Shown here: positions 1,915 to 16,713 of the stretch, one piece after another | Layout: the number at the start of each line of letters is the position of its first letter | Position numbering within the stretch: position 1 is the stretch's first letter | Origin: an uncultured Alcaligenaceae bacterium | GTDB taxonomy: Bacteria; Pseudomonadota; Gammaproteobacteria; Burkholderiales; Casimicrobiaceae | Direction of reading: 5' to 3' | Assembly: GCA_964517465.1 (NCBI GenBank) | Contig: CAZFEK010000028.1 | Coordinates: forward strand, 1-32,000 | Length of the DNA: 32,000 nucleotides | The notes under the pieces: model-generated | Told to the model about the DNA's origin: nothing | What the model saw: only the letters and a program-made list of their open reading frames with translations | Database searches by the model: none | Program-made: the position numbers and the translations under genes

Positions 1915-2007
1915 GGTAAAAAGGGCTTGCTTGCCGTATACCGCCGCCCAACGGCGCCCGGCGATCCCCCTTGGTTCCGGCTTGCCTGGCTTAGGGTAGA
2001 GGGCAAG

Positions 2008-3129
2008 ATGCTGACGGGACAGCAAGGCAGCGCGGGCGCCGCGGCTGTGAATACGCGGGAACTGTGCTGGTTCGAGGAGGTGCGCAAGGACGACGTCGCC
2101 CTGGTAGGCGGCAAGTGTTCCTCCCTCGGCGAACTCATCAATGCCGGCGTGCGCGTGCCGCCGGGATTCGCGCTCACCACCAACGGGTACGCGCGCTTCA
2201 TGCGCGATGCCGGCGTGGGTCAAGACATTCCCCGCATGCTCGAAGGCGTGGGGCAGGACGATTTGGAGCGGCTGGAAAACGTGAGCCAAGCGATTCGCCA
2301 AGCGATCGAGGCGCACGCATTCGCCTGGGAAATGGAAGACGCCATCGCCGAATATTACCGCCGGCTTTCGGTGCGCTGCATGGTGCCGGCGGTGCCCGTG
2401 GCGGTGCGCTCCAGCGCCACCGCCGAAGATTTGCCCGGGGCGAGTTTCGCCGGGCAACAAGACACCTACCTTTGGATACGCGGCGTCGACGACGTGCTGC
2501 ATCATGCGCGGCGCTGTATTTCCAGTTTGTTCACGGCGCGGGCCATCGCTTACCGCATCAAGATGGGTTTTCCGCACGAAGACGTGGCCCTTTCGGTGGG
2601 TTTTCAGAAAATGGCCAACTCCTACACCGCCGGGGTGATGTTCACCCTCAATCCCGGCAACGGCGACCGTTCAGTGATCGCCATCGACGCCAATTTCGGC
2701 TTCGGCGAATCGGTGGTGTCGGGCGAAGTGACGCCGGATCATTTTCTGATCAACAAGATCACGCTCGACATTCTGGAGCGCACCATCTCCACCAAAGAGA
2801 TCACCTACACCGTCGATCCCAAGACGCAGAAGTCGGTGAAGATGGATACACCTTTCGAGAGGCAGAACGTGCAATCGGTGATCGATGAAGAAATCGTCGA
2901 ACTCGCCCGCATGGGCAAGGCCATCGAAAAACACTACGGACGGCAAATGGATATCGAATGGGCCGTGGACAAGGATCTGCCCGCGGGCGGCAACATCTTC
3001 ATCTTGCAAGCGCGCCCCGAAACGGTGTGGAGCGAGAAGCGCCAAACCGAGGCGAGCGGCACGGGCAAAGCCACTTCGGCGATGGATTTCATTTTGTCCA
3101 GCCTGCTCACGGGAAAGAAAGTGTCATGA
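2008..3129 (+). CDS. ppsB: Phenylphosphate synthase subunit with PEP/pyruvate-binding (PPDK_N-type ATP-grasp) domain
   Basis: The internal ATG at 2008 of listed ORF 1759..3129 gives 373 aa (about 40 kDa). The family-typical N-terminus is ELCWFEEVRKDDVALVGGKCSSLGELINAGVRVPPGF, followed by SSATAEDLPGASFAGQQDTYL. The 83 upstream codons run through the hairpin repeats and look non-coding. Confidence 0.88.
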   Translation: MLTGQQGSAGAAAVNTRELCWFEEVRKDDVALVGGKCSSLGELINAGVRVPPGFALTTNGYARFMRDAGVGQDIPRMLEGVGQDDLERLENVSQAIRQAIEAHAFAWEMEDAIAEYYRRLSVRCMVPAVPVAVRSSATAEDLPGASFAGQQDTYLWIRGVDDVLHHARRCISSLFTARAIAYRIKMGFPHEDVALSVGFQKMANSYTAGVMFTLNPGNGDRSVIAIDANFGFGESVVSGEVTPDHFLINKITLDILERTISTKEITYTVDPKTQKSVKMDTPFERQNVQSVIDEEIVELARMGKAIEKHYGRQMDIEWAVDKDLPAGGNIFILQARPETVWSEKRQTEASGTGKATSAMDFILSSLLTGKKVS

Positions 3130-3812
3130 TCGTCAAGAACTGGATGCAGGCCAACCCCGAGCATGTCCATGGCGACACCCTGCTCGCCGAAGCCAAACGC
3201 ATACTCACCGAACACAATCTGCAAGCCCTGCCGGTGATCGACGAGGGCCGCCTGCGGGGGCTCATCACTCGCCAGCATTGTCTGCGCGCGGCGCATTTCG
3301 TGGCGCGCACGCAAAACCCGGACGAATACAACTTCTTCGCCAACCGCCTCAAGGTGAAAGACGTGATGGTGCGCAACCCGGCCACCGTCGATGCCTCGGA
3401 CACCATGGAAGAATGCCTGCGCCGCGGGCAGGAGTTAAACGTGGGGCAGTTTCCGGTGCTCGACCAGGGCCAGGTGGTGGGCGTGATCTCGTCGAACGAA
3501 ATTCTCTCCCTGGCGGCGCATTTTCTGGGTGCTTGGGAAAATCGCAGCGGCGTCACCCTGGGTCCGCTCGATCTCAAGCCCGGCATCATCGGGCGCATCG
3601 CCGATCTGGTGGAAGGGGCGGGTGCCGAAGTGCAGGCGATCTACCCCATTGCCAGCAACGCCAACGGGCATAGGCCGACGCCGGGGGGCGGCAGGGAACG
3701 CAAGATCATCGTGCGCTTTCACAGCGCACCCGTGGAAAAGGTGGTGGCCGTTCTTGAAGCCGCGGGCCTCAAGGTGCTCGAAGCGGTGGCGGCCCGAAAC
3801 GAAACTTTGTGA
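3126..3812 (+). CDS. ppsC: CBS-pair protein, phenylphosphate synthase stimulatory subunit
   Basis: The ATG at 3126 overlaps the ppsB stop (ATGA), giving 228 aa (about 24 kDa). Two CBS-like repeats are visible (...ALPVIDEGRLRGLITRQ... and ...QFPVLDQGQVVGVISSNEIL...), with an ACT-like C-terminal half. Position and size match the third pps gene of T. aromatica. Confidence 0.8.
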   Translation: MIVKNWMQANPEHVHGDTLLAEAKRILTEHNLQALPVIDEGRLRGLITRQHCLRAAHFVARTQNPDEYNFFANRLKVKDVMVRNPATVDASDTMEECLRRGQELNVGQFPVLDQGQVVGVISSNEILSLAAHFLGAWENRSGVTLGPLDLKPGIIGRIADLVEGAGAEVQAIYPIASNANGHRPTPGGGRERKIIVRFHSAPVEKVVAVLEAAGLKVLEAVAARNETL

Positions 3813-3830: not shown

Positions 3831-5252
3831 ATGGACCTCAGATATTTCATCGATCAATGCGAAGCGGCGGGAGAACTCGCCCGCGTCAAGACCGAGGTGG
3901 ATTGGAACCTGGAAATCTCCCACGTCTCCAAACTCACCGAAGAAAAGAAAGGGCCGGCGCTGTTGTTCGAAAGCGTCAAGGGCTACAGCACCCCGGTGTT
4001 CACCGGCGCCTTCGCCACCACCAAACGCCTGGCGATCATGTTGGGCCTGCCCCATCACCTGTCGATGTGTGAATCGGCCCAGGCCTGGATGAAAAAGACC
4101 ATCACCGCCGAAGGCCTCATCAAGGCCCGCGAAGTGAAAGACGGCCCGGTGCTCGCCAACGTGATTTCCGGCGACAAGGTCGACCTCAGCATGTTCCCGG
4201 TGCCCAAGTTTTTTCCCTTGGACGGCGGGCGTTATATCGGCACCACGGTGTTCGTGGTGCTGCGCGACCCCGAGACCAATGAAACGAATCTCGGCACCTA
4301 TCGCATGCAAATGCTCGACAACAAAACTTGCGGCGTGCAGATACTGCCCGGCAAGCGTGGCGAGCGCATCATGAAAAAGTACGCCAAGATGGGCAAGAAG
4401 ATGCCCGCCGCGGCGGTGATCGGCTGCGACCCGCTTTTGTTCATGGCCGGCACCTTGATGCACAAAGGGGCGAGTGACTTCGACATCACCGGGACGGTGC
4501 GCGGCCAGCAAGCGGAATTCCTGCTCGCACCCATGACCGGCCTGCCGGTGCCCGCGGGCGCGGAGATCGTGCTCGAGGGCGAAATCGATCCATCGAACTT
4601 CCGCCCCGAAGGGCCGTTCGCGGAATACACTGGCTACTACACCGACGAGCTGCACAAACCCATTCCCAAACCCGCGCTGGAGGTGAAGCAGATCCTCCAT
4701 CGCGACAACCCCATTTTGTGGGCCACGGGGCAGGGCCGGCCGGTGACCGACGTACACATGTTGCTCGCCTTCACCCGCACCGCCACGCTGTGGACCGAAC
4801 TCGAAAAGATGAAAATCCCCGGCGTGCAATCGGTGTGCGTGATGCCCGAATCGGCCGGACGCTTCTGGGCGGTGGTGTCGGTCAAGCAGAGCTACCCCGG
4901 TCACTCGCGCCAGGTGGCCGACGCGGTCATCGCCAGCAACACCGGCTCTTACGGCATCAAGGGCGTGATCACGGTCGACGAAGACATCATGGCGGACGAC
5001 ATCCAGCGCGTGTTCTGGGCGCTGTCTTGCCGCTACGACCCGATGCGCGGCACCGAACTCATCAAACGCGGACGCTCGACCCCGCTCGACCCGGCGCTCG
5101 ACCCCAACTCCGACAAACTCACCACTTCACGCATTCTGATGGACGCCTGCATTCCTTACGAGTGGAAACAAAAGCCCATCGAGGCGCGCATGGATGAAGA
5201 AACGCTTGCCAAGATCAGGGGGCGTTGGAACGAATACGGTATCGATCGGTGA
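3831..5252 (+). CDS. ppcB: UbiD-family subunit of phenylphosphate carboxylase (first paralogue)
   Basis: 473 aa. The UbiD-type N-terminus is MDLRYFIDQCEAAGELARVKTEVDWNLEIS, and the motif EGPFAEYTGYYT is present. GGAG sits 7 nt upstream of the ATG. Position is as in the T. aromatica cluster. Confidence 0.88.
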   Translation: MDLRYFIDQCEAAGELARVKTEVDWNLEISHVSKLTEEKKGPALLFESVKGYSTPVFTGAFATTKRLAIMLGLPHHLSMCESAQAWMKKTITAEGLIKAREVKDGPVLANVISGDKVDLSMFPVPKFFPLDGGRYIGTTVFVVLRDPETNETNLGTYRMQMLDNKTCGVQILPGKRGERIMKKYAKMGKKMPAAAVIGCDPLLFMAGTLMHKGASDFDITGTVRGQQAEFLLAPMTGLPVPAGAEIVLEGEIDPSNFRPEGPFAEYTGYYTDELHKPIPKPALEVKQILHRDNPILWATGQGRPVTDVHMLLAFTRTATLWTELEKMKIPGVQSVCVMPESAGRFWAVVSVKQSYPGHSRQVADAVIASNTGSYGIKGVITVDEDIMADDIQRVFWALSCRYDPMRGTELIKRGRSTPLDPALDPNSDKLTTSRILMDACIPYEWKQKPIEARMDEETLAKIRGRWNEYGIDR

Positions 5253-5400: not shown

Positions 5401-5916
5401 ATGAACATGGAAAAAGCGAAAAACATCAAGCTGGTGATTCTCGACGTCGATGGCGTCATGACCGATGGCCACATCATCATCGACGACAACGGCGTGGAGT
5501 CGCGCCATTTCGATATCAAGGACGGCATGGGTGTGGTGGTGCTGATGATGTCCGGCGTGGAAGTGGCGATCATCACCTCGAAGAAATCGGTGGCCGTGCG
5601 CCACCGCGCCGAGGAGCTGAAGATCAAGCGTTTCTACGAAGGCATCAAGAAGAAGACCGAACCCTACGAGGAAATGTTGAAGGACATGGGCATCACCGAT
5701 GACCAAGTGTGCTACGTCGGCGATGATCTGGTTGACCTGTCGATGATGAAGCGCGTCGGCCTGCCGGTGGCGGTGGCCGACGCCGTGCAGGACGTCAAAG
5801 ACCGTGCCGAATATGTCACCCAGGCCCGAGGCGGGCGAGGTGCGGTGCGCGAAGTGGCGGAGTTGATCTTGAAGACCCAAGGCAAATGGGAAGCCATACT
5901 TGCCAAGGTGGGTTGA
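5401..5916 (+). CDS. ppcD: KdsC-like HAD phosphatase subunit of phenylphosphate carboxylase (about 18 kDa)
   Basis: The HAD motif I is LVILDVDGVMTDG, followed by ITSKKS and a later GDDLVDL (motif IV-like), as in the KDO-8-P phosphatase family. The ATG at 5407 is an alternative start with better spacing to GGAG at 5395-5398. The delta/ppcD label is from memory of the Thauera nomenclature, and the gamma/delta naming could be swapped. Confidence 0.82.
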   Translation: MNMEKAKNIKLVILDVDGVMTDGHIIIDDNGVESRHFDIKDGMGVVVLMMSGVEVAIITSKKSVAVRHRAEELKIKRFYEGIKKKTEPYEEMLKDMGITDDQVCYVGDDLVDLSMMKRVGLPVAVADAVQDVKDRAEYVTQARGGRGAVREVAELILKTQGKWEAILAKVG

Positions 5917-5938
5917 GCGAATTTTCAAGGAGAAGCAC

Positions 5939-7387
5939 GTGGCCGTCCCCCGCAATAACCGTGAGTTCATCGAAGCCTGCATCGCCAGCGGCGATGCGGT
6001 GCATATCAAACAGGAAGTCGACTGGGAAAACGAGGCTGGTGCCATCGTGCGCCGCGCTTGCGAGCTGGCGGCACCGGCGCCTTTCATGGAGAAGATCAAG
6101 GATTATCCCGGCTTCTCCTATTTCGGCGCGCCGCTGTCGACCTACCGGCGCATGGCCATCTCGATGGGCATGGATCCGGCCTCCAGCCTGCCGGAGATCG
6201 GCAAGGAATACGTCAAGCGCACCAACGGCGAGCCGGTTGCACCGGTGCTGGTCGACAGGAAGGACGCGCCCTGCAAGGAGAACATCCTCAAGGGCGCCGA
6301 CGTCGATCTGTGCAAGCTGCCCGTGCCGCTGGTGCACGACGGCGACGGCGGCCGCTATGTCGGCACCTGGCATGCCGTGGTGACCAAGCACCCGGTGCGC
6401 GGCGACGTGAACTGGGGCATGTACCGGCAGATGATGTTCGACTCGCGCACCATGAGCGGCGCGGTGTTCCCGTTTTCGGATCTGGGCAAGGCGCTGAACG
6501 ACTACTACCTGCCGCGCGGCGAGAGCTGTCCCTTCGCCACTGCCATCGGGCTGTCGCCTCTGGCGGCCATGGCGGCTTGCGCGCCCTCGCCCATTCCCGA
6601 ACCCGAGCTGGTGGGCATGCTCGCCGGGGAACCCGCGCGTCTGGTGAAATGCGAGACCAACGACCTCGAAGTGCCGGCCGACGCCGAGATCATCCTCGAA
6701 GGCGAAATCTGCCCCGACTACAAAGTCGAGGAGGGGCCTTTCGGCGAATACACCGGTTACCGCACCTCGCCGCGCGACTTTCGCGTCACCTTCCGGGTGA
6801 ACTGCATCACCTATCGCAACAACGCCACCATGACCATCTCCAACATGGGCGTGCCGCAGGACGAAGGGCAATTGCTGCGTTCCTTCTCGCTCGGCCTCGA
6901 ACTGGAGAAGCTCTTGAAGAGCCAGGGCATTCCGGTGACGGGCGTGTACATGCATCCGCGCTCCACGCACCACATGATGATCGTCGGCGTGAAGCCCACG
7001 TATTCGGGTGTAGCACAACAGATCGGGCAGCTCGCTTTCGGCTCCAAGCTCGGGCCCTGGTTCCACATGGTGATGGTGGTCGACGATTTGACCGACATCT
7101 ACAACTGGGACGAGGTCTACCACGCTTTCTGCACCCGCTGCCATCCGGAGAACGGCATCCACATCTACCGCAACTCGCCGGGCACGCCGCTTTATCCCTT
7201 CGCCACGCCGCACGAGCGCAAGTTCTCGATCGGCTCCAAAGTGGTGTTCGACTGCCTCTGGCCGCTCGATTGGGACAAGACCAATGACGTGCCGACCCTG
7301 GTGTCCTTCAAGAACGTCTATCCGAAGGAGATCCAGGAGAAGGTGCTGGCCAATTGGGCGTCCTACGGCTATCCGCCGGTCAAATGA
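5939..7387 (+). CDS. ppcA: UbiD-family subunit of phenylphosphate carboxylase (second paralogue)
   Basis: A GTG at 5939 is preceded by AAGGAG at 5927-5932. The listed ORF starts at a TTG at 5900 inside the previous gene. The product is 482 aa with UbiD-type N-terminus REFIEACIASGDAVHIKQEVDWENE and motif EGPFGEYTGYRT. Confidence 0.88.
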   Translation: MAVPRNNREFIEACIASGDAVHIKQEVDWENEAGAIVRRACELAAPAPFMEKIKDYPGFSYFGAPLSTYRRMAISMGMDPASSLPEIGKEYVKRTNGEPVAPVLVDRKDAPCKENILKGADVDLCKLPVPLVHDGDGGRYVGTWHAVVTKHPVRGDVNWGMYRQMMFDSRTMSGAVFPFSDLGKALNDYYLPRGESCPFATAIGLSPLAAMAACAPSPIPEPELVGMLAGEPARLVKCETNDLEVPADAEIILEGEICPDYKVEEGPFGEYTGYRTSPRDFRVTFRVNCITYRNNATMTISNMGVPQDEGQLLRSFSLGLELEKLLKSQGIPVTGVYMHPRSTHHMMIVGVKPTYSGVAQQIGQLAFGSKLGPWFHMVMVVDDLTDIYNWDEVYHAFCTRCHPENGIHIYRNSPGTPLYPFATPHERKFSIGSKVVFDCLWPLDWDKTNDVPTLVSFKNVYPKEIQEKVLANWASYGYPPVK

Positions 7388-7400
7388 GGAGAAGAACACC

Positions 7401-7655
7401 ATGAACCAATGGGAAGTGTTCGTCAACGACGTGAAAGAGCTGGCCGAAAACAGCGCGCTCGAGCTCACCATCCGCAGCCTCAATCCGGGTATCCACAAAT
7501 ACACCTACCGGCGGGTGAAGTGCGAGGTTTCCAGCGATCTCCAGAAACACGCTGACCAGTTGCAGGTGCGCTTGGGGCGCGGGCAGCTCAGCCCGAGCCG
7601 GTTCTCCATCCGGGTGCTTGGCGAAGTCGAGCGCCTGCCGGCGAAGTATCGTTGA
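7401..7655 (+). CDS. ppcC: Small (84 aa, about 10 kDa) orphan subunit of phenylphosphate carboxylase
   Basis: ATG at 7401 sits 13 nt after the ppcA stop and is preceded by GAGGAGAAG. I recognise no family motif. The assignment rests only on size and position between the UbiD-type genes, which matches the 10-kDa subunit described for T. aromatica. The gene symbol has the same naming caveat as ppcD. Confidence 0.65.
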   Translation: MNQWEVFVNDVKELAENSALELTIRSLNPGIHKYTYRRVKCEVSSDLQKHADQLQVRLGRGQLSPSRFSIRVLGEVERLPAKYR

Positions 7656-7701
7656 GCGTTTGCCCGGGTCCAGCGGAAAGGCGAAACAAGCGGGTGCCAA
7701 C

Positions 7702-9054
7702 ATGGCCTATGCCGATTTGCGGGCCTACCTCGATGACCTCGGCGACGCGCTGATCCGCGTGACCGAGCCCCTGCACCCCCGCTTCGAGGTGGCGGCGCTG
7801 CTCTCCACCCTGCAGAACGAGGGGCGTGCGGTGTTGCTGGAGCAGGTGGCGGGTTATCCCGGCCGGCGCGTCGTGGGCAACCTGCTGGCGAGCCGCGGTT
7901 TGGCGGCGAAAGCACTGGGCTGCGCGGAAAAAGACCTGGTCGCCGGCTACGTCGCGCGCAGCGCCGGGCGCGTAGCACCGGTCCGGGCGCGGGAGGTGCC
8001 GGTGCAAGCGGTGGTGCATCGCGAGCCCGGCGATGTTTCCGCCCTGCTGCCGCTGCTGACCCATTACGAAAAGGACGCCGCGCCTTTTCTCACCTGCGGC
8101 GTGGTGCTGGCGCGCGACCCGGCAAGCGGGCGGCGAGGCATGGGCATCCATCGCATGATGTGGAAAGGCGGCCGGCGTTTCGGCATGCTGCTCGCCAATC
8201 CGCCGCTGTCGCAATTCCTGGCGGCCAGCGAGGCCAAGGCTGAGCCTCTGGAGGTGGCGGTGGCGCTGGGGGTCGACCCGGCCACACTTTTGGCGGCGGT
8301 GGTCAAGACCGGACCGGGCGGCCCCGACAAGCTGGACATCGCCGGCAGTCTGCGCGGCGCGCCGGTGGAACTGGCACCGGCGCTGTCCGTGGCGCTCGAA
8401 GTGCCGGCCCGCGCCGAGGTGATCCTCGAAGGGCGCATCCTGCCGGGCCTGCGCGAGCCCGAAGGACCCTTCGGCGAAAACACCGGCTATTACTTCCAGA
8501 ACCACAGCCCGGTGATGGAAGTCACCGCCCTCACGCATCGCGAGGACTTCATCTTCCCGGCCCTGGTGCCCTGGACGGCCGAAGTGGATACGCTGCTGTC
8601 GCTCGCCGGCGGCGCCGAGTTGTTGGGCCAATTGCAAGGCCTGGTGCGCGGCGTCACCGATCTCGAAATCACGCCCGGCACGTGCAGCTTCGCCGCCGTG
8701 ATCGCGGTGAAGGACTGCCCCAAACACGAGGTGCGGCGCCTCATTCACCTCGCACTCAATCTCGATCGGCGGCTGAAAAGCGTAACCGTGGTCGATGACG
8801 AAGTGGATATCAGGAAGCCCCGCGACGTGGCCTGGGCGCTGGCCACGCGCTGGCAGCCGGCGCGCGACACGGTGCTGCTCGAAGGTCTGGAGGCTTATGT
8901 CATCGACCCATCGGTGGGCGGTGGCGCGGCCTCGAAAGTGGGCTACGATGCCACTCGCGGACCGGGTGGCGAATTTGAACGTATCGCCCTCCCGGCCGCC
9001 GCCGTGGCCCGGGCGCGCGTGGTGGCCGCATCCATTCTGGGAGCTCGTCGATGA
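7702..9054 (+). CDS. Third UbiD-family (de)carboxylase paralogue, function unknown
   Basis: ATG at 7702 gives the N-terminus MAYADLRAYLDDLGDALIRVTEPLHPRFEVAALL, typical of UbiD. The motif EGPFGENTGYYF is present. 450 aa. The stop overlaps the ubiX start. Confidence 0.85.
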   Translation: MAYADLRAYLDDLGDALIRVTEPLHPRFEVAALLSTLQNEGRAVLLEQVAGYPGRRVVGNLLASRGLAAKALGCAEKDLVAGYVARSAGRVAPVRAREVPVQAVVHREPGDVSALLPLLTHYEKDAAPFLTCGVVLARDPASGRRGMGIHRMMWKGGRRFGMLLANPPLSQFLAASEAKAEPLEVAVALGVDPATLLAAVVKTGPGGPDKLDIAGSLRGAPVELAPALSVALEVPARAEVILEGRILPGLREPEGPFGENTGYYFQNHSPVMEVTALTHREDFIFPALVPWTAEVDTLLSLAGGAELLGQLQGLVRGVTDLEITPGTCSFAAVIAVKDCPKHEVRRLIHLALNLDRRLKSVTVVDDEVDIRKPRDVAWALATRWQPARDTVLLEGLEAYVIDPSVGGGAASKVGYDATRGPGGEFERIALPAAAVARARVVAASILGARR

Positions 9055-9635
9055 AAATGGCAGTAGGAATTTCCGGCGCCAGCGGCGCGATTTACGGCAT
9101 ACGCATCCTCGAGGTCCTGCAAAAGGCGGGGGTGGAGACGCATCTGGTGATGTCCGATTCGGCCAAGCGCACCATCGCCTATGAAACCGATTATTCGGTG
9201 GAGGCGGTGAAACAGCTGGCCAGCGAAGTGCATGACATCAACGATGTCGGCGCCTGCATTTCCAGCGGCTCGTTCAAGCATGCCGGCATGGTGATCGCAC
9301 CCTGTTCGATCAAAACCTTGTCCGCGATCGCCAATTCCTTCAACACCAACCTTCTGATCCGCGCCGCGGACGTGTGCCTCAAGGAGCGCCGCAAACTCGT
9401 GCTGATGCTGCGTGAAACACCGCTGCACGCCGGCCACCTGCGGCTCATGACCCAGGTCACGGAAAGCGGCGCGGTGCTGGTGCCGCCGCTGCCGGCCTTT
9501 TACCACCGACCCAAGACCCTGGAGGACATCATCATGCAATCGGTCAACAAGGCGCTCGACCAGTTCGATCTCGATCTCGATCTGTTCAAGCGCTGGACCG
9601 GCAACGAGGAGCGCGAGGCCCTGAAGAAACGGTGA
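9051..9635 (+). CDS. ubiX: UbiX-type flavin prenyltransferase (prenyl-FMN synthase)
   Basis: There is an ATGA overlap with the upstream gene. The N-terminus MAVGISGASGAIYGIRILEVL, plus MVIAPCSIKTLSAIANS and LKERRKLVLMLRETPLH, is a close UbiX/Pad1 pattern. Confidence 0.92.
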   Translation: MKMAVGISGASGAIYGIRILEVLQKAGVETHLVMSDSAKRTIAYETDYSVEAVKQLASEVHDINDVGACISSGSFKHAGMVIAPCSIKTLSAIANSFNTNLLIRAADVCLKERRKLVLMLRETPLHAGHLRLMTQVTESGAVLVPPLPAFYHRPKTLEDIIMQSVNKALDQFDLDLDLFKRWTGNEEREALKKR

Positions 9636-9645
9636 GGAACGGAGC

Positions 9646-10053
9646 GTGGCGGTCACCGAAGCGGAAACCCTGGTGCTCTTGGGCGAAGCCTGTTCCGGGC
9701 TGGGCGAGGGAGCGAGCTTCACCCAACTCGATTGGGTGAGGCGGGAGTTTTTGTCCAGGCTTGGTTTCGAACCCTATCCGGGAACCTTCAACCTGCGGAT
9801 GAAGGGGGCTTCTTGGGACCAGGCGCGCCGGGTGCTGGCCCGAGAAGCGGGGATTGCCATTACGCCGGCGCCGGGTTTTTGCGCCGCCAAGTGTTTCCAT
9901 GTCGTGGTGGCGGGGTGCATCACTGGCGCGGTGGTGTTCCCGGATGTGGCAGATTACCCGCCGGAAAAGTTCGAAGTCATTTCGGCCGTGCCCGTGCGCC
10001 AGACGCTGGGCCTTGCCGATGGGGACGAGGTTTCGATCAGCGTGGTGTGTTGA
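9646..10053 (+). CDS. Archaeal-type CTP-dependent riboflavin kinase homologue (DUF120/RibK family)
   Basis: GTG start 10 nt after the ubiX stop. The motifs LGEACSGLGEGASF, LGFEPYPGTFNLRM and GAVVFPDVADYPPEKFEVISAVPVRQTLGLADGDEVSI parallel my memory of the MJ0056 family (SGLGEG, GFEPYEGTLNLKL, GAIVVP...IEIIAP...L.DGD). Confidence 0.7.
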   Translation: MAVTEAETLVLLGEACSGLGEGASFTQLDWVRREFLSRLGFEPYPGTFNLRMKGASWDQARRVLAREAGIAITPAPGFCAAKCFHVVVAGCITGAVVFPDVADYPPEKFEVISAVPVRQTLGLADGDEVSISVVC

Positions 10054-10086
10054 AGCACCGGCTGAGTTTTTTGCGGAGAAACGTTC

Positions 10087-10548
10087 ATGATCGGCAATAT
10101 CACCAAAGAGCTTCCCGAGCGCCTCGTTGGTTTCCTGCGGCCCGGAGCACCCGGCTTGCTGCTGAGCTGCGGCGCCGATGGTTATCCCAGCTCGGCTTAT
10201 ACATGGGTGATGGTCATCGATGCGAAGCGCCTGCGTTTCGGCGTCGACCACGGCGGCTCGGCGATGGCCAACATCGAGCGCAGCGGCCAGGCTTCGTTGC
10301 AGATCATCGGCCCGGGGAACGTGGTGTTTCTCATCAAGGGCTCGGCCCGCAAGGTCAAAGAGCGTATTGCGGCGGCGGAGCCGGCATCGATTGCCTTGTA
10401 CGAAATGGCGGTGTTTGGCGCCAAGGACCAGTCGTGGCCCGGCGTGTCCACCACGGCGCTTTGTTATGAATGGCCGGCAGAGAACCGTGCGGCCATGCTC
10501 AAGATGGAACAGGACGTTTACGCGGAAATGCGCGACCTCTCAGTTTGA
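10087..10548 (+). CDS. PNPOx-like FMN-binding split-barrel family protein (putative)
   Basis: GGAG lies 8 nt upstream of the ATG. 153 aa. The overall pattern (LLLSCGADGYPSSAYTWVMVIDAKRLRFGVDHGGSAMANIERSGQASLQIIGPGNVVFLIKGSA) fits pyridoxamine-5'-phosphate-oxidase-like general flavoproteins. The assignment is by pattern only. Confidence 0.5.
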   Translation: MIGNITKELPERLVGFLRPGAPGLLLSCGADGYPSSAYTWVMVIDAKRLRFGVDHGGSAMANIERSGQASLQIIGPGNVVFLIKGSARKVKERIAAAEPASIALYEMAVFGAKDQSWPGVSTTALCYEWPAENRAAMLKMEQDVYAEMRDLSV

Positions 10549-10570
10549 TTTTGCACCAAGAAAGACTTTG

Positions 10571-11860
10571 ATGTACTTCGATCCGAATACCGAAACGTTG
10601 CCCCGCGAAGAACTCGGGCGGTTGCAACTGGGGAAGCTCCAGGCGCAAAGCCGCGAGCTCTGGGGCAAGAACCTTTTCTACACGGAGAAATGGAAGGCTG
10701 CGGGGACGACACCGGACGACCTTCGATCGCTCAGCGATTTGGCGCGACTGCCGCTGACGACCAAGAGCGAACTGATGGAGGACCAGGCTGCCTTTGGCCC
10801 CTTTGGGCGCAACCTGACTTACCCCATCGAGCGCTATGTGCGTTATCACCAAACTTCGGGTACCACCGGTGTGCCGCTCAAAGTGCCTGACACCGAGGAG
10901 GGCTGGCAGTGGTGGGGGCGCTGCTGGGGGCATGTGCTGGCCGGAGCGGGTGTCACCGCAGCAGACCGCATATTCATGGCGTTTTCTTTCGGGCCTTTCG
11001 TAGGCTTTTGGGCCGCCACCGAAGGCGCGCGCAAACTCGGGGCAATGATGATTCCGGGGGGCGGGCGGGATTCTCCGCAGCGCCTGGAATTGATGCGTGA
11101 AGTCGGCGCCACGGTGCTGTGCTGCACGCCAACCTATGCGCTGCGATTGGCGGAGGTGGCAAGAGAGATCGGTTTCGATCTCGCGGCCATACCGATCAAG
11201 GCGACGGTGCATGCGGGCGAACCCGGTGCCAATGTGCCGGCCACCAAGGCGCGCATCCAGGAAGTGTGGAATGCGAAATGTTTCGATCATGCGGGGGCCA
11301 CCGAAGTTGGCGCGCACTCCTTCGAATGCCAGGCCCAGCCCGGCGGCACCCACCTGATCGAGAGCGAGTACATCGCCGAAGTGCTGGATCCGGCCACCGG
11401 CAAACCGGTGGCCGAAGGCGAGCGAGGCGAGTTGGTGATCACCAACCTCGGGCGTTGGGGCTTTCCCATCATTCGCTACAAAACCGGCGACATCGTGCGC
11501 ACCACGACTGAACGCTGCGCCTGCGGCCGCACTTCGCTGCGTTTCGAGGGAGGCATCCTGGGGCGCGCGGACGACATGGTGACGGTGCGCGGCGTCAACG
11601 TCTTTCCCGCCGGCGTGGAAAACATCTTGCGCAAGTTCGTGGAAATTGACGAGTACCGCGTCACGGTTTCGAAAGTGCGGCAGATGGATGAAATGGAAGT
11701 TGAGGTCGAATTGTGCGAAGGCGCGGATCCGAACATCGTGCACGCCATCGCCGAACGCCTGGATGCCGTGCTTTCCTTCCGTCCGCGGGTGCAGAGCCTG
11801 CCACGAAACGCGCTGCCCCGCTTCGAGTTGAAGGCGAAGCGGTTTCATGTGCAGCGGTGA
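10571..11860 (+). CDS. PaaK / coenzyme-F390-synthetase-type adenylate-forming ligase
   Basis: The internal ATG at 10571 of listed ORF 10220..11860 gives 429 aa. The longer form would overlap the previous gene. Motifs are YHQTSGTTGVPLKV, YKTGDIVR and GRADDMVTVRGVNVFP, and the length is typical of the phenylacetate-CoA ligase family. Confidence 0.85.
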   Translation: MYFDPNTETLPREELGRLQLGKLQAQSRELWGKNLFYTEKWKAAGTTPDDLRSLSDLARLPLTTKSELMEDQAAFGPFGRNLTYPIERYVRYHQTSGTTGVPLKVPDTEEGWQWWGRCWGHVLAGAGVTAADRIFMAFSFGPFVGFWAATEGARKLGAMMIPGGGRDSPQRLELMREVGATVLCCTPTYALRLAEVAREIGFDLAAIPIKATVHAGEPGANVPATKARIQEVWNAKCFDHAGATEVGAHSFECQAQPGGTHLIESEYIAEVLDPATGKPVAEGERGELVITNLGRWGFPIIRYKTGDIVRTTTERCACGRTSLRFEGGILGRADDMVTVRGVNVFPAGVENILRKFVEIDEYRVTVSKVRQMDEMEVEVELCEGADPNIVHAIAERLDAVLSFRPRVQSLPRNALPRFELKAKRFHVQR

Positions 11861-11918
11861 GGGCATGAAGACTCCGGGTGCGCGACGATTCCAGCGCAAA
11901 CTTTGAGTCGGGCGGGCG

Positions 11919-12698
11919 ATGCCGCTGATCCGGCGCGAAGCGCCCGCGCCCGCCGGCCAAGCCGAGCCTGGCGCATCCGTCCCGAAGGGCACGGTGGTAT
12001 ATGCCATCGGTGATGTGCATGGGCGCGACGATCTGCTGGCCGAGGTACAAGCGGGCATTCTGGCCGATTCGGGGACCCGAGACGCCAGTCGACGGGTGGT
12101 GGTTTACCTCGGCGACTACTTCAGCCGGGGGCGTGATTCGCGTGCCGTCGTCGAAGGCGTGATTCGCTGGCGCCCGGCCGGATTTGAAATCGTGACGCTC
12201 AAGGGCAATCACGAAGATCTGATCCTGCGCTTCATGCAGGGCAATCTTCGCACCGGCAAGCACTGGCTCGATTTCGGCGGCGTCGAAGCGCTGGCCCAGT
12301 ACGGCCTGCCCATGGCCGATCCCGCAGCACGGGACGACGCGACCCTGAGCGAGCTCTGCGAGCGCTGGCAGGACGAGTTGCCTGAGCATCACCTGCGCTT
12401 CCTGCTTGAACTGGTGCTCCATCACCGCGAGGGAGACTATTTCTTCGCGCATGGCGGTGTTCTGCCCGGGGTGCCGCTATCCGAGCAGAAAGAGCGAGAT
12501 TTGATTTGGATTCGCAATCGTTTCCTGCACTCCACCGTCGATCACGGTGCGGTCGTGGTTCACGGCCACTGCATTTGCGAGCAACCAGAGGTGCGCAGCA
12601 ATCGCATCGGCATCGACACCGGGGCTTATCGGAGCGGCATCTTGACCTGTTTGGTGCTCGAGGGGAAACGAAGGCAGTTTTTGCAGACGCGCGGGTGA
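11919..12698 (+). CDS. Calcineurin-like metallophosphoesterase (PrpA/ApaH-like Ser/Thr phosphatase family)
   Basis: Motifs are VYAIGDVHGRDD, VYLGDYFSRGRDS, LKGNHEDL, FFAHGG, VVHGH and IGIDTGAY. The gene is co-directional and starts 58 nt after the ligase gene. Confidence 0.8.
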   Translation: MPLIRREAPAPAGQAEPGASVPKGTVVYAIGDVHGRDDLLAEVQAGILADSGTRDASRRVVVYLGDYFSRGRDSRAVVEGVIRWRPAGFEIVTLKGNHEDLILRFMQGNLRTGKHWLDFGGVEALAQYGLPMADPAARDDATLSELCERWQDELPEHHLRFLLELVLHHREGDYFFAHGGVLPGVPLSEQKERDLIWIRNRFLHSTVDHGAVVVHGHCICEQPEVRSNRIGIDTGAYRSGILTCLVLEGKRRQFLQTRG

Positions 12699-12940
12699 GT
12701 CGTCCCCCCCCCCGCCCGCGCCAGCAGAGAGAAGCTTCCCCGCCACAAGTTTGAGTGGGGCCGCCCCGGGGGTACGCATCGTGTCGCTCACCCCCGCCGC
12801 AAACGGCCGGGCTTGCGCTCGACCCGTGGTGAAAAGCCGGAGCGGGCGCAGCCCGCGAGCCGCGCTCGCCTCCTTCCATGGGAAGGGGGAGGATCCTTCG
12901 GCGAGCCGCAGCCGGTCGGCCCATCGGCGCGAAAACGCGG

Positions 12941-13132
12941 TTACTGCGGGTTCTCGCCGGCAGAGGGATCGGCATTGCCTTCCTGCTGAGCCACGCGAAA
13001 TTCTTCCTTGGCCCAGGCGGCCAGATCCTGAGTCTTGCACCGCTCCGAGCAGAACGGGCGAAAGCGGTTCTCGGGGATCCAGGGAGTCAACTCGCCGCAA
13101 GTCGGGCAAGAAACAAGGCGGGGGGAGTTCAC
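12941..13132 (-). CDS. yacG: DNA gyrase inhibitor YacG (zinc-ribbon protein)
   Basis: The sequence [36 protein letters not shown] is present. My start is a GTG at 13132 that overlaps the zapD stop (GTGA), giving 63 aa. The listed 104-aa ORF would overlap zapD extensively. Confidence 0.8.
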
Positions 13133-13944
13133 AGATTGCAGAAGGCTAGTTCGAAATCGATGTTGCCTTCGACCACTCGCGGTCTTTCGACGCGGCTGGG
13201 TTCGAGGAAGCGCACGTTCAGCGCATATTTGTTGGCGCTGACTTCCGGCACGCAATGGGCCTCTTCCGACACACCCACACGCAGCAGTTGCGCCGTCTTG
13301 GCGGTGGTGAGCATGAGCTGGAAGACACCGTTATGGGCGGTATGCGTCACTACTTTGCCGCTGTCGCGCATCAGCCGCAGCAAGATCGCCAACGCGCCTT
13401 CCACCGGCAGCATCGGTTCGAGCCACGCGGTAAGATCCTGGCGCCTGACTTCCGCGGGCAAGTTGAGCCAGTAGTGGTAGCCCGGCAGATCGAACTCGCA
13501 CACACCTCCCGGCAGCCCGGCGCGTTGTTTGACGCCCATCAGCCATTCGCTGGACCGCATGTGCTGCCCGAGCTTGCCCTGAAGAGCGTGAAGATCAGCG
13601 CTCACGGCTTCGATTTGGGCGATGACTTGCTCGAGCGTGTCTTGCACGATCGAGGGGTTGTTGCGCCAGCCGGCAAAGATCTGGCGCTGGCGCTCCAGTT
13701 CTTGCAGCACGTCGGACTTCAAGTCTGCGCGGGCGGCGACATCGATGATTTCGAATAGCGCCAGCAATCCGACGTGATGTTCGAGCGGATCCTCTCGCGC
13801 GATGAAAAAAATCGCCCGGCGAAAAATGTCTTCGAGCCGCATGAGAGTGCGCACGCGTTCGTTGAGCGGGAATTCGTAGCGGATCACGCTGGCGGCTCGA
13901 AGAGGTTCACATTGAGATTCTGCTACAAAACGCGAGAGTTTCAA
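13129..13944 (-). CDS. zapD: Cell division protein ZapD
   Basis: The N-terminal [21 protein letters not shown] and the C-terminal [10 protein letters not shown] parallel E. coli ZapD (LFEHPLNEKMRTWLRIEFL ... LDFELACC). The start is a TTG at 13944 overlapping the coaE stop. A GTG 19 codons downstream is an alternative. Confidence 0.85.
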
Positions 13945-14594
13945 ACGTTGGTTTGATCGAGCCGGGGCTTCGGGGCCGTGGCACCGCCGTTCGGGGTCGA
14001 TCCAAGGGCGCGATAGACTTCGTCCAAGGCCCGCACCTGAGCATCGATCGCCTCAGGGGGGCCGGCGTTGTCGATGACATCGTCGGCGGCCGCAAGTCGC
14101 TCGGCCCGGCTTGCCTGAGCGGCCATGATGGCGCGCACCTCTTCGGCTTTCAGGCCACTGCGGGCCTTCACGCGGCGAATCTGTTCTTCCTCGGGGCAGT
14201 CGACCACGAGCAAGCGGTCGACCTGCGAACGATAGCGCCCGCCTTCGATCATCAAGGGGACCATCAACAGGCCGTAAGGGCCTCGCCAGTGGGCCATTCG
14301 GCGGGTTATCTCGGCTCCGATCAAGGGGTGCAGCGCGGCTTCCAGACGGGCTTTGGCTTCGGGGTTGCCGAAGACCAGGCTGCGGATCTTTGGGCGATCG
14401 AGCTCGCCGTCGGCTTGCAAAACCGCCTCGCCAAACGCAGCGCGTACCGCCTGCCAACCGCAAGCGCCTGGACGGGAGATCTCGTGGGCAATCTGATCGG
14501 CGTCCACCAGGTCGGCGCCTAAGGCAAGGAAGCGATCGGCAACCGTGCTCTTGCCCGAGCCTATGCCTCCGGTAAGGCCTACGATCAATGCCAT
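13941..14594 (-). CDS. coaE: Dephospho-CoA kinase
   Basis: The N-terminus MALIVGLTGGIGSGKSTVADRF carries the P-loop. The conserved position is after pilD and before zapD/yacG. Confidence 0.9.
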   Translation of the reverse strand: MALIVGLTGGIGSGKSTVADRFLALGADLVDADQIAHEISRPGACGWQAVRAAFGEAVLQADGELDRPKIRSLVFGNPEAKARLEAALHPLIGAEITRRMAHWRGPYGLLMVPLMIEGGRYRSQVDRLLVVDCPEEEQIRRVKARSGLKAEEVRAIMAAQASRAERLAAADDVIDNAGPPEAIDAQVRALDEVYRALGSTPNGGATAPKPRLDQTNV

Positions 14595-14609
14595 CGCGAG
14601 TGCTTGGGG

Positions 14610-15455
14610 CTAGCCCAAGTACCACTTCATCAGCGGCCGGCCCCAGAACAAGGCGAGAATTCCTGCGGCAGCGAGATAGGGTCCAAAGGGGATCGGCTGA
14701 TTGTGGTCGCCTCCGCGCAGCGCCAGCATGGTGACCGCGATGACCGCGCCGACCACCGACGAAAAGAAGATGACCACGGGTAGAACTTGCCAGCCCAGCC
14801 AGGCGCCGATGGCGCCCAGGAGCTTGAAATCGCCATATCCCATGCCTTCTTTTCCGCGCAGGAGCTTGAAGAGCCAATAAACCGTCCAGAGCGACAAATA
14901 ACCGGCCATGGCGCCGACCACGGCACTGGCCAGGTCGGTGAAAACACCGAAGACGTTGAAGAGCAGGCCAAGCCAAAGCAAAGGCAGCGTGATGTCGTCG
15001 GGCAGCAGTTGGGTGTCCAGGTCGATGAAAGTGAGGGCGATCATGGCCCAGACCAAGATCATGGCGCCGACGGCAGCCCAGCCCGGACCAAAAGCGACGG
15101 CGGCTCCCGCGGCGCCCGCTCCGGCAAGCGCTTCGACGATGGGATAACGAGCGGAAATCTGGGCCCCGCATTCGGAGCAGCGCCCGCGCAGGAAAAGATA
15201 GCTCAGAAGGGGGATGTTCTCGCCGACCGTGATCTTGTGCCCGCATGCGGGGCAGTGCGAGGCGGGCACGGCCAGGTTGAACCGTTCGGCAGCAGCGGGC
15301 TCCTTGCCGGCCAATTCCTCGCATTGCGCGGCCCATTCGCGTTCCAGCATCTTGGGCAGGCGATGAATCACCACATTGAGGAAACTGCCGATCAACAGGC
15401 CGCAAATGGCTGCGCCCAGCGCAAAAGCGCCCGGGTATAAACTCAAAAAACTCAT
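14610..15455 (-). CDS. pilD: Prepilin peptidase / N-methyltransferase (A24 family)
   Basis: There are two Cys pairs (CPACGHKI, CSECGAQI), a polytopic membrane profile and the catalytic motif GMGYGDFKLLGA. Confidence 0.9.
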   Translation of the reverse strand: MSFLSLYPGAFALGAAICGLLIGSFLNVVIHRLPKMLEREWAAQCEELAGKEPAAAERFNLAVPASHCPACGHKITVGENIPLLSYLFLRGRCSECGAQISARYPIVEALAGAGAAGAAVAFGPGWAAVGAMILVWAMIALTFIDLDTQLLPDDITLPLLWLGLLFNVFGVFTDLASAVVGAMAGYLSLWTVYWLFKLLRGKEGMGYGDFKLLGAIGAWLGWQVLPVVIFFSSVVGAVIAVTMLALRGGDHNQPIPFGPYLAAAGILALFWGRPLMKWYLG

Positions 15456-15470
15456 GCTCGCGACTTTTGG

Positions 15471-16694
15471 CTAAACCACCGCGCCGAGTTTGAAGATCGG
15501 CAGATACATGGCAATCACTAGACCGCCGATGGTCACCCCCAGCACAACCATGATCATCGGTTCGATCAGGCTGGACAGCGCCTCGATGGCGTCATCGACT
15601 TCTCGCTCGAAGAAGTCGGCGACCTTGCCGAGCATGGCATCCAAGGATCCGGATTCCTCGCCGATTTGAGTCATTTGGATGACCATGTTGGGGAAGACGT
15701 CGCGGTTTTGCATCGAAACCGTGAGACTAGTGCCGGTCGAGACTTCGGCCTGGATCTTCTTGGTCGCGTCGCGGTAGACGGCGTTACCCGACGCGCCCGC
15801 GACCGAGTCGAGCGATTCGACCAGCGGCACGCCGGCGGCGAACATCGTTTGCAGCGTCCGGCACCAGCGCGCAATGGTCGCTTTGCGCAGCACCTCTCCA
15901 ATGACGGGTATGCGCAGGGAAAGGCGATCGATCCCGTCGCGGAATTTCTGGGAAGTTCTGAAGAGGTAGATGAATCCGATCACGAAGCCGATGAGCGAGA
16001 CGGCAAAGATCCACCAGTAGTGAACTACAAAATCGGAAATCGCGATCACCATCACGGTTGGCGCGGGCAATTCGGCGCCGAAACTCGTGAAGACCTGTTT
16101 GAAGGCAGGCACCACAAAGAGCATGATCACCGCAACCACCACGAAGGCAACCACGATCACCGCGGCAGGATAAAACAGCGCCGACTTGATCTTGCTCTTG
16201 ATCGCCAGGATCTTTTCTTTGTAGGTGGCCAGGCGGTCGAGAATGGCGTCTAGCACGCCGGCCGACTCGCCTGCTGCGACGAGGTCGCAGTACAGGTTGT
16301 CGAAATACAAGGGGTGCTTGCGAAAAGCGCGGCTCAAGCTGCTGCCTGACTCTACATCGCCTTTGATCTCGAGCAGCAGGCGAGACACCCGAGGGTTGCC
16401 GTGACCTCGCGCGACGATATCAAAAGATTGCAGCAGTGGAACGCCAGCCTTCATCATGGTGGCGAGCTGGCGGGTGAAAAAGGTAATGTCCTTCTCCGAA
16501 ATCCGGCCTCCGCCTCGAAGGCTCTGTTTCTTGACCTTGAGCACCCGCACGCCCTGGCGTCGAAGCGAGGCAGTGACTACGGTCTCCGATGGTGCCCGCA
16601 GCTCGCCGCGTACCTGCTTGTTGTTGCGGTCGATGCCCTCCCAAATGTAGTTGAATTGCTTCACGTCCTTGCGGATTGCGGTCGCGGTGGCCAT
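15471..16694 (-). CDS. pilC: Type IV pilus assembly platform protein (GspF family)
   Basis: 407 aa with duplicated GspF-type repeats (FTRQLATMMKAGVPLLQS and WCRTLQTMFAAGVPLVES). It lies between pilB and pilD. Confidence 0.9.
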   Translation of the reverse strand: MATATAIRKDVKQFNYIWEGIDRNNKQVRGELRAPSETVVTASLRRQGVRVLKVKKQSLRGGGRISEKDITFFTRQLATMMKAGVPLLQSFDIVARGHGNPRVSRLLLEIKGDVESGSSLSRAFRKHPLYFDNLYCDLVAAGESAGVLDAILDRLATYKEKILAIKSKIKSALFYPAAVIVVAFVVVAVIMLFVVPAFKQVFTSFGAELPAPTVMVIAISDFVVHYWWIFAVSLIGFVIGFIYLFRTSQKFRDGIDRLSLRIPVIGEVLRKATIARWCRTLQTMFAAGVPLVESLDSVAGASGNAVYRDATKKIQAEVSTGTSLTVSMQNRDVFPNMVIQMTQIGEESGSLDAMLGKVADFFEREVDDAIEALSSLIEPMIMVVLGVTIGGLVIAMYLPIFKLGAVV

Positions 16695-16713
16695 GATTTC
16701 GTCCTAAGGCAAG

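Follow-up and report, generated by a model that had tools for sequence, protein, structure and literature searches.

Gene clusters of the pps-ppc type have been known since 2000. In Thauera aromatica and in Aromatoleum/Azoarcus they comprise ppsABC and ppcBDAG plus downstream open reading frames (ORFs). In the literature that was examined, no function was assigned to these downstream ORFs. Here we analyze the six genes that follow the carboxylase genes (7702-12698) in a 32,000-nucleotide (nt) stretch of DNA from an uncultured Alcaligenaceae bacterium (contig CAZFEK010000028.1, positions 1 to 32,000), referred to below as the window. A pps-ppc cluster for anaerobic phenol catabolism is encoded on the + strand of the window. 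The six genes at its distal end are predicted to encode, in order, a third UbiD paralogue (UbiD3), the flavin prenyltransferase UbiX, a DUF120 protein resembling the archaeal riboflavin kinase RibK, a split-barrel protein, a PaaK-like acyl/aryl-coenzyme A (CoA) ligase and a calcineurin-like metallophosphoesterase.

The cluster of Aromatoleum aromaticum EbN1 is phenol-induced through PheR (PMC10715001). For UbiD enzymes more generally, accessory factors beyond UbiX are needed, and the oxidant that matures prenylated flavin mononucleotide (prFMN) under anaerobic conditions is unknown (PMC10865409, PMC13040415). The LpdD/VdcD-type chaperone for the reduced cofactor (prFMNH2) is an accessory protein that is encoded with UbiX and helps UbiD activation (PMC10865409). 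PhdC of Mycolicibacterium fortuitum, described in 2024-25, shares its operon with PhdA, a UbiD enzyme, and with PhdB, a UbiX homologue; it oxidizes the prFMN radical to the iminium form in a reaction in which ferricyanide can replace O2. Both PhdC and the very distant YclD activate Escherichia coli UbiD in cells, BLAST searches placed PhdC-like sequences in Actinomycetota only, and the physiological prFMN oxidant in strict anaerobes is unknown according to the same authors (PMC13040415). The original prediction for this DNA had held that no cofactor toolkit attached to a UbiD system was characterized; since LpdD, PhdC and YclD are now described, that statement is out of date, phdABC with its PhdC maturase (PMC13040415) and LpdD (PMC10865409) being the relevant cases.

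Direct reading of the sequence confirmed that the six genes are co-directional and closely spaced. UbiD3 begins after a 46-nt gap from ppcG, its end overlaps the start of ubiX in the sequence ATGA, and the remaining gaps are 10, 33, 22 and 58 nt. The family assignments given in the original prediction were likewise confirmed by profile hidden Markov model (HMM) searches, with PNPOx_N only just above its cut-off. In an independent metagenome assembly (L060, Logan SRR10064596), the split-barrel protein and the gene order are identical to those of the window, and automatic gene calls there give products of 450, 194, 135, 153, 429 and 259 amino acids (aa), the same as for the window's six genes. 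On balance, we think it probable that the tail is a conserved prFMN supply and maturation unit, made up of UbiD3, UbiX, the DUF120 protein and the split barrel, to which a pathway ligase and a recruited phosphoesterase are attached. The original prediction had assigned the whole tail to such a module, and this held for about half of the genes; the ligase and the phosphoesterase found no support as members of it.

UbiX and the adjoining RibK-like gene

For comparison, the DUF120 clade served as probe to collect 53 genome loci, further contigs were added, and the cluster proteins were mapped onto the loci by tblastn. Gene content was counted over 38 loci with full flanks, and the proximity of UbiX to DUF120 over 47 loci with sequence on both sides. 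The closest genomes are those of Rhodocyclales, Casimicrobiaceae, other betaproteobacterial metagenome-assembled genomes (MAGs) and Candidatus Desulfobacillus denitrificans. The commonest order is ppsABC, ppcBDAG, UbiD3, UbiX, DUF120, a Nudix hydrolase gene, split barrel, PaaK-like ligase and phosphoesterase, to which Aromatoleum loci add a transporter. UbiX is present in 38 of the 38 related clusters, UbiD3 in 36 and ppcA in 34, followed by the Nudix gene (28), the PaaK-like gene (25), the split barrel (24), the phosphoesterase (24) and the transporter (10). Based on these counts, the core of the tail is UbiD3-UbiX-DUF120, and the other genes come and go. The exact composition found in the window, which lacks the Nudix gene, recurs in three species-level genomes (L007, L009 and L015), and variants occur in dozens more. 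Taken with its recurrence in L060, the arrangement is therefore conserved and not due to chance.

The identity of the ubiX product (9051-9635, 194 aa) is secure, as judged from its matches to NF004685 (267 bits versus a cut-off of 188) and TIGR00421 (251 versus 109). The DUF120 gene (9646-10053, 135 aa) has a GTG start, and PF01982 (CTP-dep_RFKase) matches its product with 108 bits versus a cut-off of 25, covering the domain over its full length (profile positions 2-121 of 121). Among structures in the Protein Data Bank (PDB), the match is to the RibK protein MJ0056, with an E value of 2e-11 and a full-length alignment. The best match in the protein collection is 86% identical, and an exact match was not present there.

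Motifs listed for RibK are the nucleotide and phosphate motifs GxGEG and GTLN, with a Mg-ligand Glu (bioRxiv 10.1101/2021.04.15.440061). The window protein keeps the glycine loop as SGLGEG, a GTLN-type motif as PGTFN, and the Mg-ligand Glu as E110. Across 15 members of the clade, residues G18, G20, G22, T47, N49 and E110 are invariant, but the loop residue E21 varies. In some members the glycine loop has degenerated, as in SDLGRA, SGRQEA or KGKGEA. The window protein also carries Cys79 and Cys83. The first corresponds to a clade cysteine in the motif FCxA that is usually accompanied by a second cysteine four residues on (GFCAAKCF), and both are missing from archaeal RibK.

The association of this gene with ubiX is the strongest result of the analysis. 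DUF120 and UbiX are strongly and repeatedly linked: UbiX lies no more than 9 kb away, on the same strand, in 45 of the 47 loci, and of the remaining two, one is on a contig that stops short. The two genes adjoin each other in phenol clusters of Betaproteobacteria and Chloroflexota and also in operons of Binatia that have no phenol genes. In the three Binatia loci (L050, L051 and L052) the order is an XdhC-like gene, DUF120, UbiX, a type-2 isopentenyl-diphosphate isomerase (TIGR02151, 412 bits versus 281) and two split barrels, the first YhbP-like and the second NF005232-like, and neither a ppc gene nor a UbiD gene was found within 10 kb. These operons (10007-13224 in L050 and 5121-8307 in L052) stand beside XdhC/YqeB molybdenum-cofactor maturation genes. 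A further contig, L058, has UbiX, DUF120 and a split barrel with 37% identity to that of the window; the genes after these are unrelated.

The pair is also found fused. At a Chloroflexota locus (L048, 9389-10423) UbiX and DUF120 share one reading frame with both Pfam domains, and a search of the protein collection returned single-chain UbiX-DUF120 fusions in five protein clusters (P0241-P0245) of 328-340 aa that are 47-100% identical and come from different samples. Two fusion loci (L063 and L065) contain several UbiD paralogues, ParA-like ATPases and a Phenyl_P_gamma-like gene. At a third (L064), the fusion adjoins phenylphosphate-synthase-like genes and a gene for an LpdD_chaperone domain protein (PF21758). 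A fusion that is matched by recurrent adjacency across three phyla is a classic indication that two proteins work in one pathway. Since UbiX acts on FMN, a local flavin kinase is the simplest reading of the DUF120 protein. A literature search found no paper meaningfully linking prFMN or UbiX with DUF120 or riboflavin kinase.

At one marine-type phenol cluster (L055, 11339-12133), UbiX is followed by a FolE2-type GTP cyclohydrolase gene (NF010200, 294 bits versus 215), which is possibly a link to flavin or pterin precursor supply.

The split-barrel protein and the third UbiD

The split-barrel gene (10087-10548) encodes 153 aa, and its product matches PF01243 (PNPOx_N) marginally, with 29.2 bits versus 28.1; its best NCBIfam model is NF005232. 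The gene is located two genes after ubiX, and homologues follow UbiX-DUF120 in 24 of the 38 clusters, in L058 and in Binatia. For one of the two Binatia split barrels, the best NCBIfam model is the same as for the window protein. Another kind of split barrel, YhbP-like, was seen both in the Binatia module and at L063, one of the fusion loci.

An AF2 (AlphaFold 2) structural model was built from 22 homologues and has a predicted local distance difference test (pLDDT) score of 84. When this model was compared with the PDB using Foldseek, the first-ranked entry was 2q9k, an uncharacterized Exiguobacterium protein, with a template-modelling (TM) score of 0.74. The second was 9nk4, the prFMN maturase PhdC of M. 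fortuitum, with a TM score of 0.63 and an E value of 3.9e-5; PhdC is also 153 residues long. Sequence profiles reached PhdC only when they were broadened. A single-sequence search of the PDB gave spurious antibody matches only, and a narrow family profile gave only 2q9k at E 0.9. With the homologues from Binatia, L055 and L058 added, the profile matched 2q9k (E 1.3e-4) and, within the N-terminal half alone, the PhdC entries (E 0.0017-0.0021), with an equal score for Rv2991. The window protein has a nearly invariant E128 beside an invariant W129, just before a C-terminal helix (131-150), and PhdC has ExW (Glu136 and Trp138) ahead of its last helix. From the model, the split barrel is distantly like PhdC and may be a remote relative of this maturase. 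PhdC is structurally among the HpaC-like flavin reductases, and a reductase role, in which the split barrel would provide reduced FMN (FMNH2) for UbiX, is therefore equally compatible. An apparent DUF120-split-barrel fusion in L043 was rejected because its two parts are in different frames, the artefactual link arising from a long ORF in an alternative frame.

UbiD3 (7702-9054, 450 aa) has the three domains UbiD_N, UbiD and UbiD_C (PF20695, PF01977 and PF20696), all above cut-offs, and scores 265 bits with TIGR00148 (cut-off 245). It is not an alpha or beta carboxylase subunit, given scores of 80 bits with TIGR02723 (cut-off 565) and 93 bits with TIGR02724 (cut-off 469). Its best PDB match is the furandicarboxylate decarboxylase HmfF (6h6x, 259 bits). 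The acidic motif E-x-P-F-G-E is present as EGPFGE at residues 254-259 and is kept in all orthologues whose alignment covers it. A second motif is altered. The Asn of N-x-G-x-[YH]-R, which we take to be one of the residues coordinating the Mn2+ that holds prFMN by its phosphate in the UbiD family, is replaced in the window protein by Gly146 (RRGMGIHR). The motif reads R[GA]MG[IV]HR, with Gly or Ala in place of Asn, in 48 of the 48 orthologues with alignment covering it; PpcA, PpcB, HmfF, E. coli UbiD and AnInD all keep the Asn. The UbiD proteins beside the UbiX-DUF120 fusions in L063 and L065 have UbiD3 as their best match, at 40-42% identity, and are also without the Asn (KWSMGIHR, AQSLGIHR and LRGMGIHR). 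Taken together, the residues that replace it are Gly, Ala or Ser. Because this paralogue goes along with UbiX in clusters whose substrates probably differ, and because its stop overlaps the ubiX start, we speculate that its role might be independent of substrate, such as accepting the cofactor or passing it on.

The following sequence of events would account for the conserved genes. The DUF120 protein, as a nucleotide-dependent kinase of the archaeal RibK type, would make FMN from riboflavin close to UbiX. The FMN would be reduced, either by the split barrel or by a general reductase, and UbiX would prenylate it with dimethylallyl phosphate to give prFMNH2, a step that is established for the family. 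In most relatives the cluster Nudix hydrolase would supply dimethylallyl phosphate from the diphosphate, and in the window organism this donor would come from elsewhere. The split barrel, which would bind flavin, could then perform or assist an O2-free oxidation of prFMNH2 or of the prFMN radical to the iminium form, as PhdC and YclD do, with an anaerobic oxidant that the scheme leaves unspecified. The mature cofactor would be loaded into the abundant PpcA and PpcB proteins, perhaps, as a speculation, by way of UbiD3. Translationally coupled to ubiX, UbiD3 may be a cofactor acceptor or carrier, or else a separate decarboxylase. Finally, the PaaK-like ligase would convert 4-hydroxybenzoate to 4-hydroxybenzoyl-CoA. 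A broader proposal is considerably more tentative: bacteria that use abundant UbiD-type carboxylases anaerobically might possess an unrecognized, portable prFMN pathway built around UbiX. It would consist of a dedicated RibK-type flavin kinase coupled and sometimes fused to UbiX, a PhdC-like split barrel that oxidizes prFMNH2 independently of O2, and an Asn-less UbiD that accepts or carries the cofactor instead of decarboxylating a substrate.

Ligase, phosphoesterase and rival readings

The PaaK-like gene (10571-11860, 429 aa) encodes AMP-binding (PF00501) and AMP-binding_C_2 (PF14535) domains, and PaaK is its best model. Scores for the PaaK equivalogs are below cut-offs (TIGR02155, 248 versus 646 bits; NF041878, 289 versus 700), and phenylacetate specificity is thus not indicated. 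PDB matches are PaaK itself (4r1l, 245 bits) and 2-hydroxyisobutyryl-CoA synthetase (225 bits). The protein is most simply read as an ordinary acyl-CoA ligase acting in the pathway. The phenol pathway requires a 4-hydroxybenzoate-CoA ligase (PMC10715001), and this need provides the simplest role for the PaaK-like enzyme, that of an aromatic-acid CoA ligase. The enzyme named as 4-hydroxybenzoate-CoA ligase in EbN1 is Hcl2, which may or may not correspond to the PaaK-like gene of the cluster.

The last gene (11919-12698, 259 aa) encodes a calcineurin-like metallophosphoesterase of the phosphoprotein phosphatase (PPP)/ApaH-like kind (PF00149 Metallophos, 39.3 bits versus 21.5), with the motifs GDVHG, GDYFSRG and GNHE in its translation. 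Its scores with the subfamily models ApaH, PrpE and PrpA/B are 26-34 bits, all of them below cut-offs of 176-750. PDB matches are weak, and comprise plant Rhizobiales-like phosphatase 2 (RLPH2; the best, at 28 bits) and lambda phosphatase. RLPH2 is presumably a phosphotyrosine-specific PPP enzyme. A metagenome scan returned more than 500 relatives of the phosphoesterase. A UbiX/phenol cluster was present in 1 of the best 80 loci, and that locus has no housekeeping neighbors in common with the window. Elsewhere, the neighbors of the gene have a heterogeneous, mutually unrelated Pfam content. The protein thus appears, from its sequence relatives, to be a recruited member of a widespread family, and enrichment of the phosphoesterase beside ubiX was rejected on the same count. 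Phenylphosphate is also an aryl phosphate, and a role of the phosphoesterase on phenylphosphate or on a phospho-enzyme intermediate is conceivable.

The source of the prenyl donor is a related question. In E. coli, the Nudix enzymes NudB, NudF, NudI and NudJ convert dimethylallyl diphosphate (DMAPP) to dimethylallyl phosphate for prFMN, or the promiscuous ThiM provides it (PMC12359138). A Nudix hydrolase gene lies between DUF120 and the split barrel in L003, L004, L008 and others, and its presence in most related phenol clusters fits a local supply of prenyl donor like that in E. coli (PMC12359138). The comparison has two differences: no specific equivalog was matched by the cluster Nudix of the relatives, and no Nudix gene was detected in the 32-kb window at E 1e-3, where only a 33-nt gap (10054-10086) separates DUF120 from the split barrel. 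It follows that a gene outside the cluster would provide the donor in the window organism; the phosphoesterase is a less likely source. Replacement of the Nudix gene by the phosphoesterase was rejected, because among the 38 loci 21 have both genes, 3 the phosphoesterase only, 7 the Nudix gene only, and 7 neither.

Several points weigh against the favored reading of the tail as a prFMN supply and maturation unit. The evidence for it is sequence, synteny and predicted structure throughout, and co-transcription is judged by gene spacing alone. The loci were retrieved by patterns from the window's DUF120 clade and so are a biased sample of bacterial DUF120 genes. About one related cluster in three lacks the split barrel, and the same proportion holds for the ligase and for the phosphoesterase. 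For the split barrel, many unrelated split barrels give nearly equal structural scores, identity to PhdC is only 18%, and the profile alignment places PhdC Glu47 against the invariant W40; the catalytic residues of PhdC are not clearly kept. The DUF120 protein scores far below the cut-offs of the RibK equivalogs (NF040694, 60.5 versus 168; NF010762, 87.8 versus 279). Its riboflavin-contact motif PxxTxx reads PDVADY in the window, the form shared by the UbiX-linked clade being Px[VM]x[DG]Y, and a Cys conserved in this clade (FCxA) stands in place of the Phe or Gly of archaeal RibK. Its substrate may therefore differ. Bacteria also already make FMN with RibF. Of the roles put forward in the original prediction, the supply of FMN by the kinase homologue has the UbiX link (45 of 47 loci, five fusion clusters) and the kinase motifs in its favor, with the RibK equivalog scores and PxxTxx against it. 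The handling or oxidation of prFMN by the split barrel has the PhdC precedent (Foldseek rank 2, profile E of about 0.002) set against the uncertain catalytic residues.

These same features of the DUF120 protein bear on an alternative that we regard as unlikely, though not the least likely of those considered, namely that it is not a riboflavin kinase and either phosphorylates prenol to dimethylallyl phosphate or serves as a non-catalytic flavin or prFMN hand-over partner of UbiX. The sub-cut-off scores, the changed PxxTxx and the clade cysteine leave room for a changed substrate or a hand-over role, as do the degenerate glycine loops of some members and the existence of RibF. The source of dimethylallyl phosphate is, moreover, a recognized loose end (PMC12359138), and the window is without a Nudix gene. 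Nevertheless, almost every member retains the residues that bind phosphate as well as the Glu that ligates Mg, the sole known activity of the fold is riboflavin phosphorylation, and a fusion of UbiX to a flavin kinase is the simplest one for an enzyme that uses FMN. Most DUF120 clusters also have the Nudix gene, and there a second route to dimethylallyl phosphate would be redundant. Riboflavin contacts are described as mainly via the backbone, and the altered PxxTxx is therefore still compatible with riboflavin. It is more improbable that ubiX alone serves the cofactor, with UbiD3 acting as a 4-hydroxybenzoate (de)carboxylase, the PaaK-like protein as a CoA ligase, and the other three genes having drifted in as general flavin or stress genes. 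Consistent with this are the patchy distribution of split barrel, ligase and phosphoesterase among related clusters, the marginal Pfam score of the split barrel, and the EGPFGE motif of UbiD3 with its resemblance to HmfF, a true decarboxylase. The adjacency of UbiX and DUF120 in three phyla and their fusions in five protein clusters argue otherwise, as does the position of the split barrel after UbiX-DUF120 outside any phenol context; UbiD3-like genes, for their part, are found with UbiX also in clusters whose substrates are probably different.

The least probable of the alternatives, in our judgment very unlikely, is that all six genes form one self-contained cofactor toolkit in which the phosphoesterase makes dimethylallyl phosphate and the ligase acts on flavin, for example by adenylation. 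The genes are tightly packed on one strand, and with Nudix absent the phosphoesterase is the only cluster-encoded candidate of pyrophosphatase type; it is weakly similar to ApaH and PrpE, which cleave P-O-P bonds. For the ligase, there is similarity to coenzyme F390 synthetase, which adenylates a deazaflavin. That similarity amounts to 116 bits, however, against 249-289 bits for PaaK-type CoA ligases, and the PaaK-like gene is missing from the UbiX-DUF120 modules outside phenol clusters (Binatia and L058). The original prediction's inclusion of the ligase in a cofactor module is not borne out by these results. Its suggestion that the phosphoesterase generates the monophosphate prenyl donor is unsupported on other grounds: the family is widespread, its neighborhoods are heterogeneous, and the gene co-occurs with Nudix. 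For this Nudix-less cluster the suggestion keeps a small probability. Overall, the co-occurrence with ubiX/ubiD that the original prediction had proposed as a check was obtained for the RibK-like gene and, less uniformly, for the split barrel (24 of 38 clusters plus L058 and Binatia), whereas the ligase was absent from the UbiX-DUF120 modules outside phenol clusters and the phosphoesterase was in a UbiX/phenol cluster at 1 of its best 80 metagenome loci.

The cluster, its surroundings and known systems

Upstream of the tail, the pps and ppc genes are in the order ppsABC-ppcB-D-A-G, which matches KH32C and more than 30 genomes. All are on the + strand. ppsA, for the PEP (phosphoenolpyruvate)-utilizing subunit of phenylphosphate synthase, is cut at its 5' end by the window edge (3-1691). 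It matches NF006152 with 1057 bits over profile positions 80-608, and the frame is open back to base 3. ppsB (1759-3129) encodes the PEP/pyruvate-binding subunit, matching the PEP synthase N-terminal half with 394 bits, and is 69-96% identical to ppsB of related loci; its true start is likely internal, at residues MLTGQQ. ppsC (3126-3812) encodes a protein with CBS-domain matches and occupies the same syntenic position as the CBS gene of KH32C and of further loci.

Equivalog models of NCBIfam were matched by all four ppc genes, and three matches were above cut-off. These are the UbiD-family beta subunit gene ppcB (3831-5252; TIGR02724, 1035 bits versus 469), the delta subunit gene ppcD (5401-5916; TIGR02726, 301 versus 282), which encodes a KdsC-like haloacid dehalogenase (HAD) phosphatase, and the UbiD-family alpha subunit gene ppcA (5900-7387; TIGR02723, 1043 versus 565). 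The gamma subunit gene ppcG/ppcC (7401-7655, 84 aa) falls below, with 127.2 bits versus 135.55 for TIGR02725 when the extended ORF was submitted, over profile positions 1-83 of 84; the gene at this position in L060 carries PF09662. A weak tblastn match to ppcG at 28633-28749 on the - strand (36% identity over 39 residues, E 7e-4) is probably due to chance.

When the window is compared with locus L009 of a Casimicrobiaceae MAG, the proteins encoded by ppsA through ppcD are 96-99% identical and that of ppcA 94%, but from ppcG onward identity is only 67-91%. The drop from ppcG onward indicates a tail with a partly separate history, and the mosaic suggests recombination within the operon. A plasmid search found the KH32C cluster only.

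Downstream of the cluster, housekeeping genes including yacG, zapD, coaE, pilD, pilC and pilB are on the opposite strand, so that the cluster ends with the phosphoesterase gene. This housekeeping region extends from 12941 to 31377 and also includes genes for a CorC-type transporter, a cytochrome c assembly protein, rimM, trmD, rsmI and an LppC-like protein. The phenol cluster thus abuts the core chromosome, and no base-composition shift is obvious. The convergent intergenic region of 240 nt that follows the phosphoesterase (12699-12940) starts with a run of nine C residues and is very G+C-rich, and no terminator-like hairpin was called in it. Within 7300-13300, no sigma-70-like promoters were found, and three terminator-like sites were detected versus 5.8 expected in shuffled sequence, which is fewer than expected. 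It is a reasonable inference that the six-gene tail is the distal part of a single pps-ppc transcription unit. Searches of the window for tRNA genes and for Rfam families gave no match, and an FMN riboswitch is therefore absent.

UbiD enzymes are wanted for biocatalytic carboxylation and decarboxylation, and many resist activation in heterologous hosts. Of accessory proteins, only LpdD and PhdC/YclD have been described so far. The UbiX-DUF120-split-barrel set stands beside phenol carboxylase or multi-UbiD clusters in organisms of anoxic habitats, and it offers clonable candidates for local FMN supply, for O2-independent maturation of the cofactor, and for a possible cofactor carrier. Enzymes that have resisted activation include phenylphosphate carboxylase and E. 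coli UbiD.

The closest described clusters are those of the KH32C plasmid and the Aromatoleum loci (L019-L031), which share with the window the order ppsABC-ppcB-D-A-G followed by a third UbiD, UbiX and DUF120. They differ in having the Nudix gene and a transporter and in being mostly without the split barrel, whereas in the window neither of the former two genes is present and both the split barrel and the phosphoesterase are. Relative to archaeal RibK (MJ0056; PF01982), the DUF120 protein has the same full-length domain, GxGEG loop, GT[LF]N motif and Glu ligand, but it is bacterial, falls below the equivalog cut-offs, has a changed PxxTxx and its own conserved Cys, and is linked to UbiX. The phdABC genes of M. 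fortuitum and YclD of Priestia megaterium provide the parallel of a small, split-barrel flavin-binding protein that is encoded with UbiX and UbiD. In contrast to PhdC, the 18%-identical window barrel does not match Glu47 in the profile alignment and has E128-W129 adjacent instead of ExW, and its host pathway runs without O2. The LpdD/VdcD chaperones are paralleled by the LpdD_chaperone domain protein of fusion locus L064; the six genes of the window include no LpdD homologue, and both the fold and the proposed chemistry differ. Set against these systems, three features appear to be new: the pairing of UbiX with a RibK-like protein, which is conserved and in some cases a fusion, the split barrels that accompany this pair, and the Asn-less UbiD paralogue.

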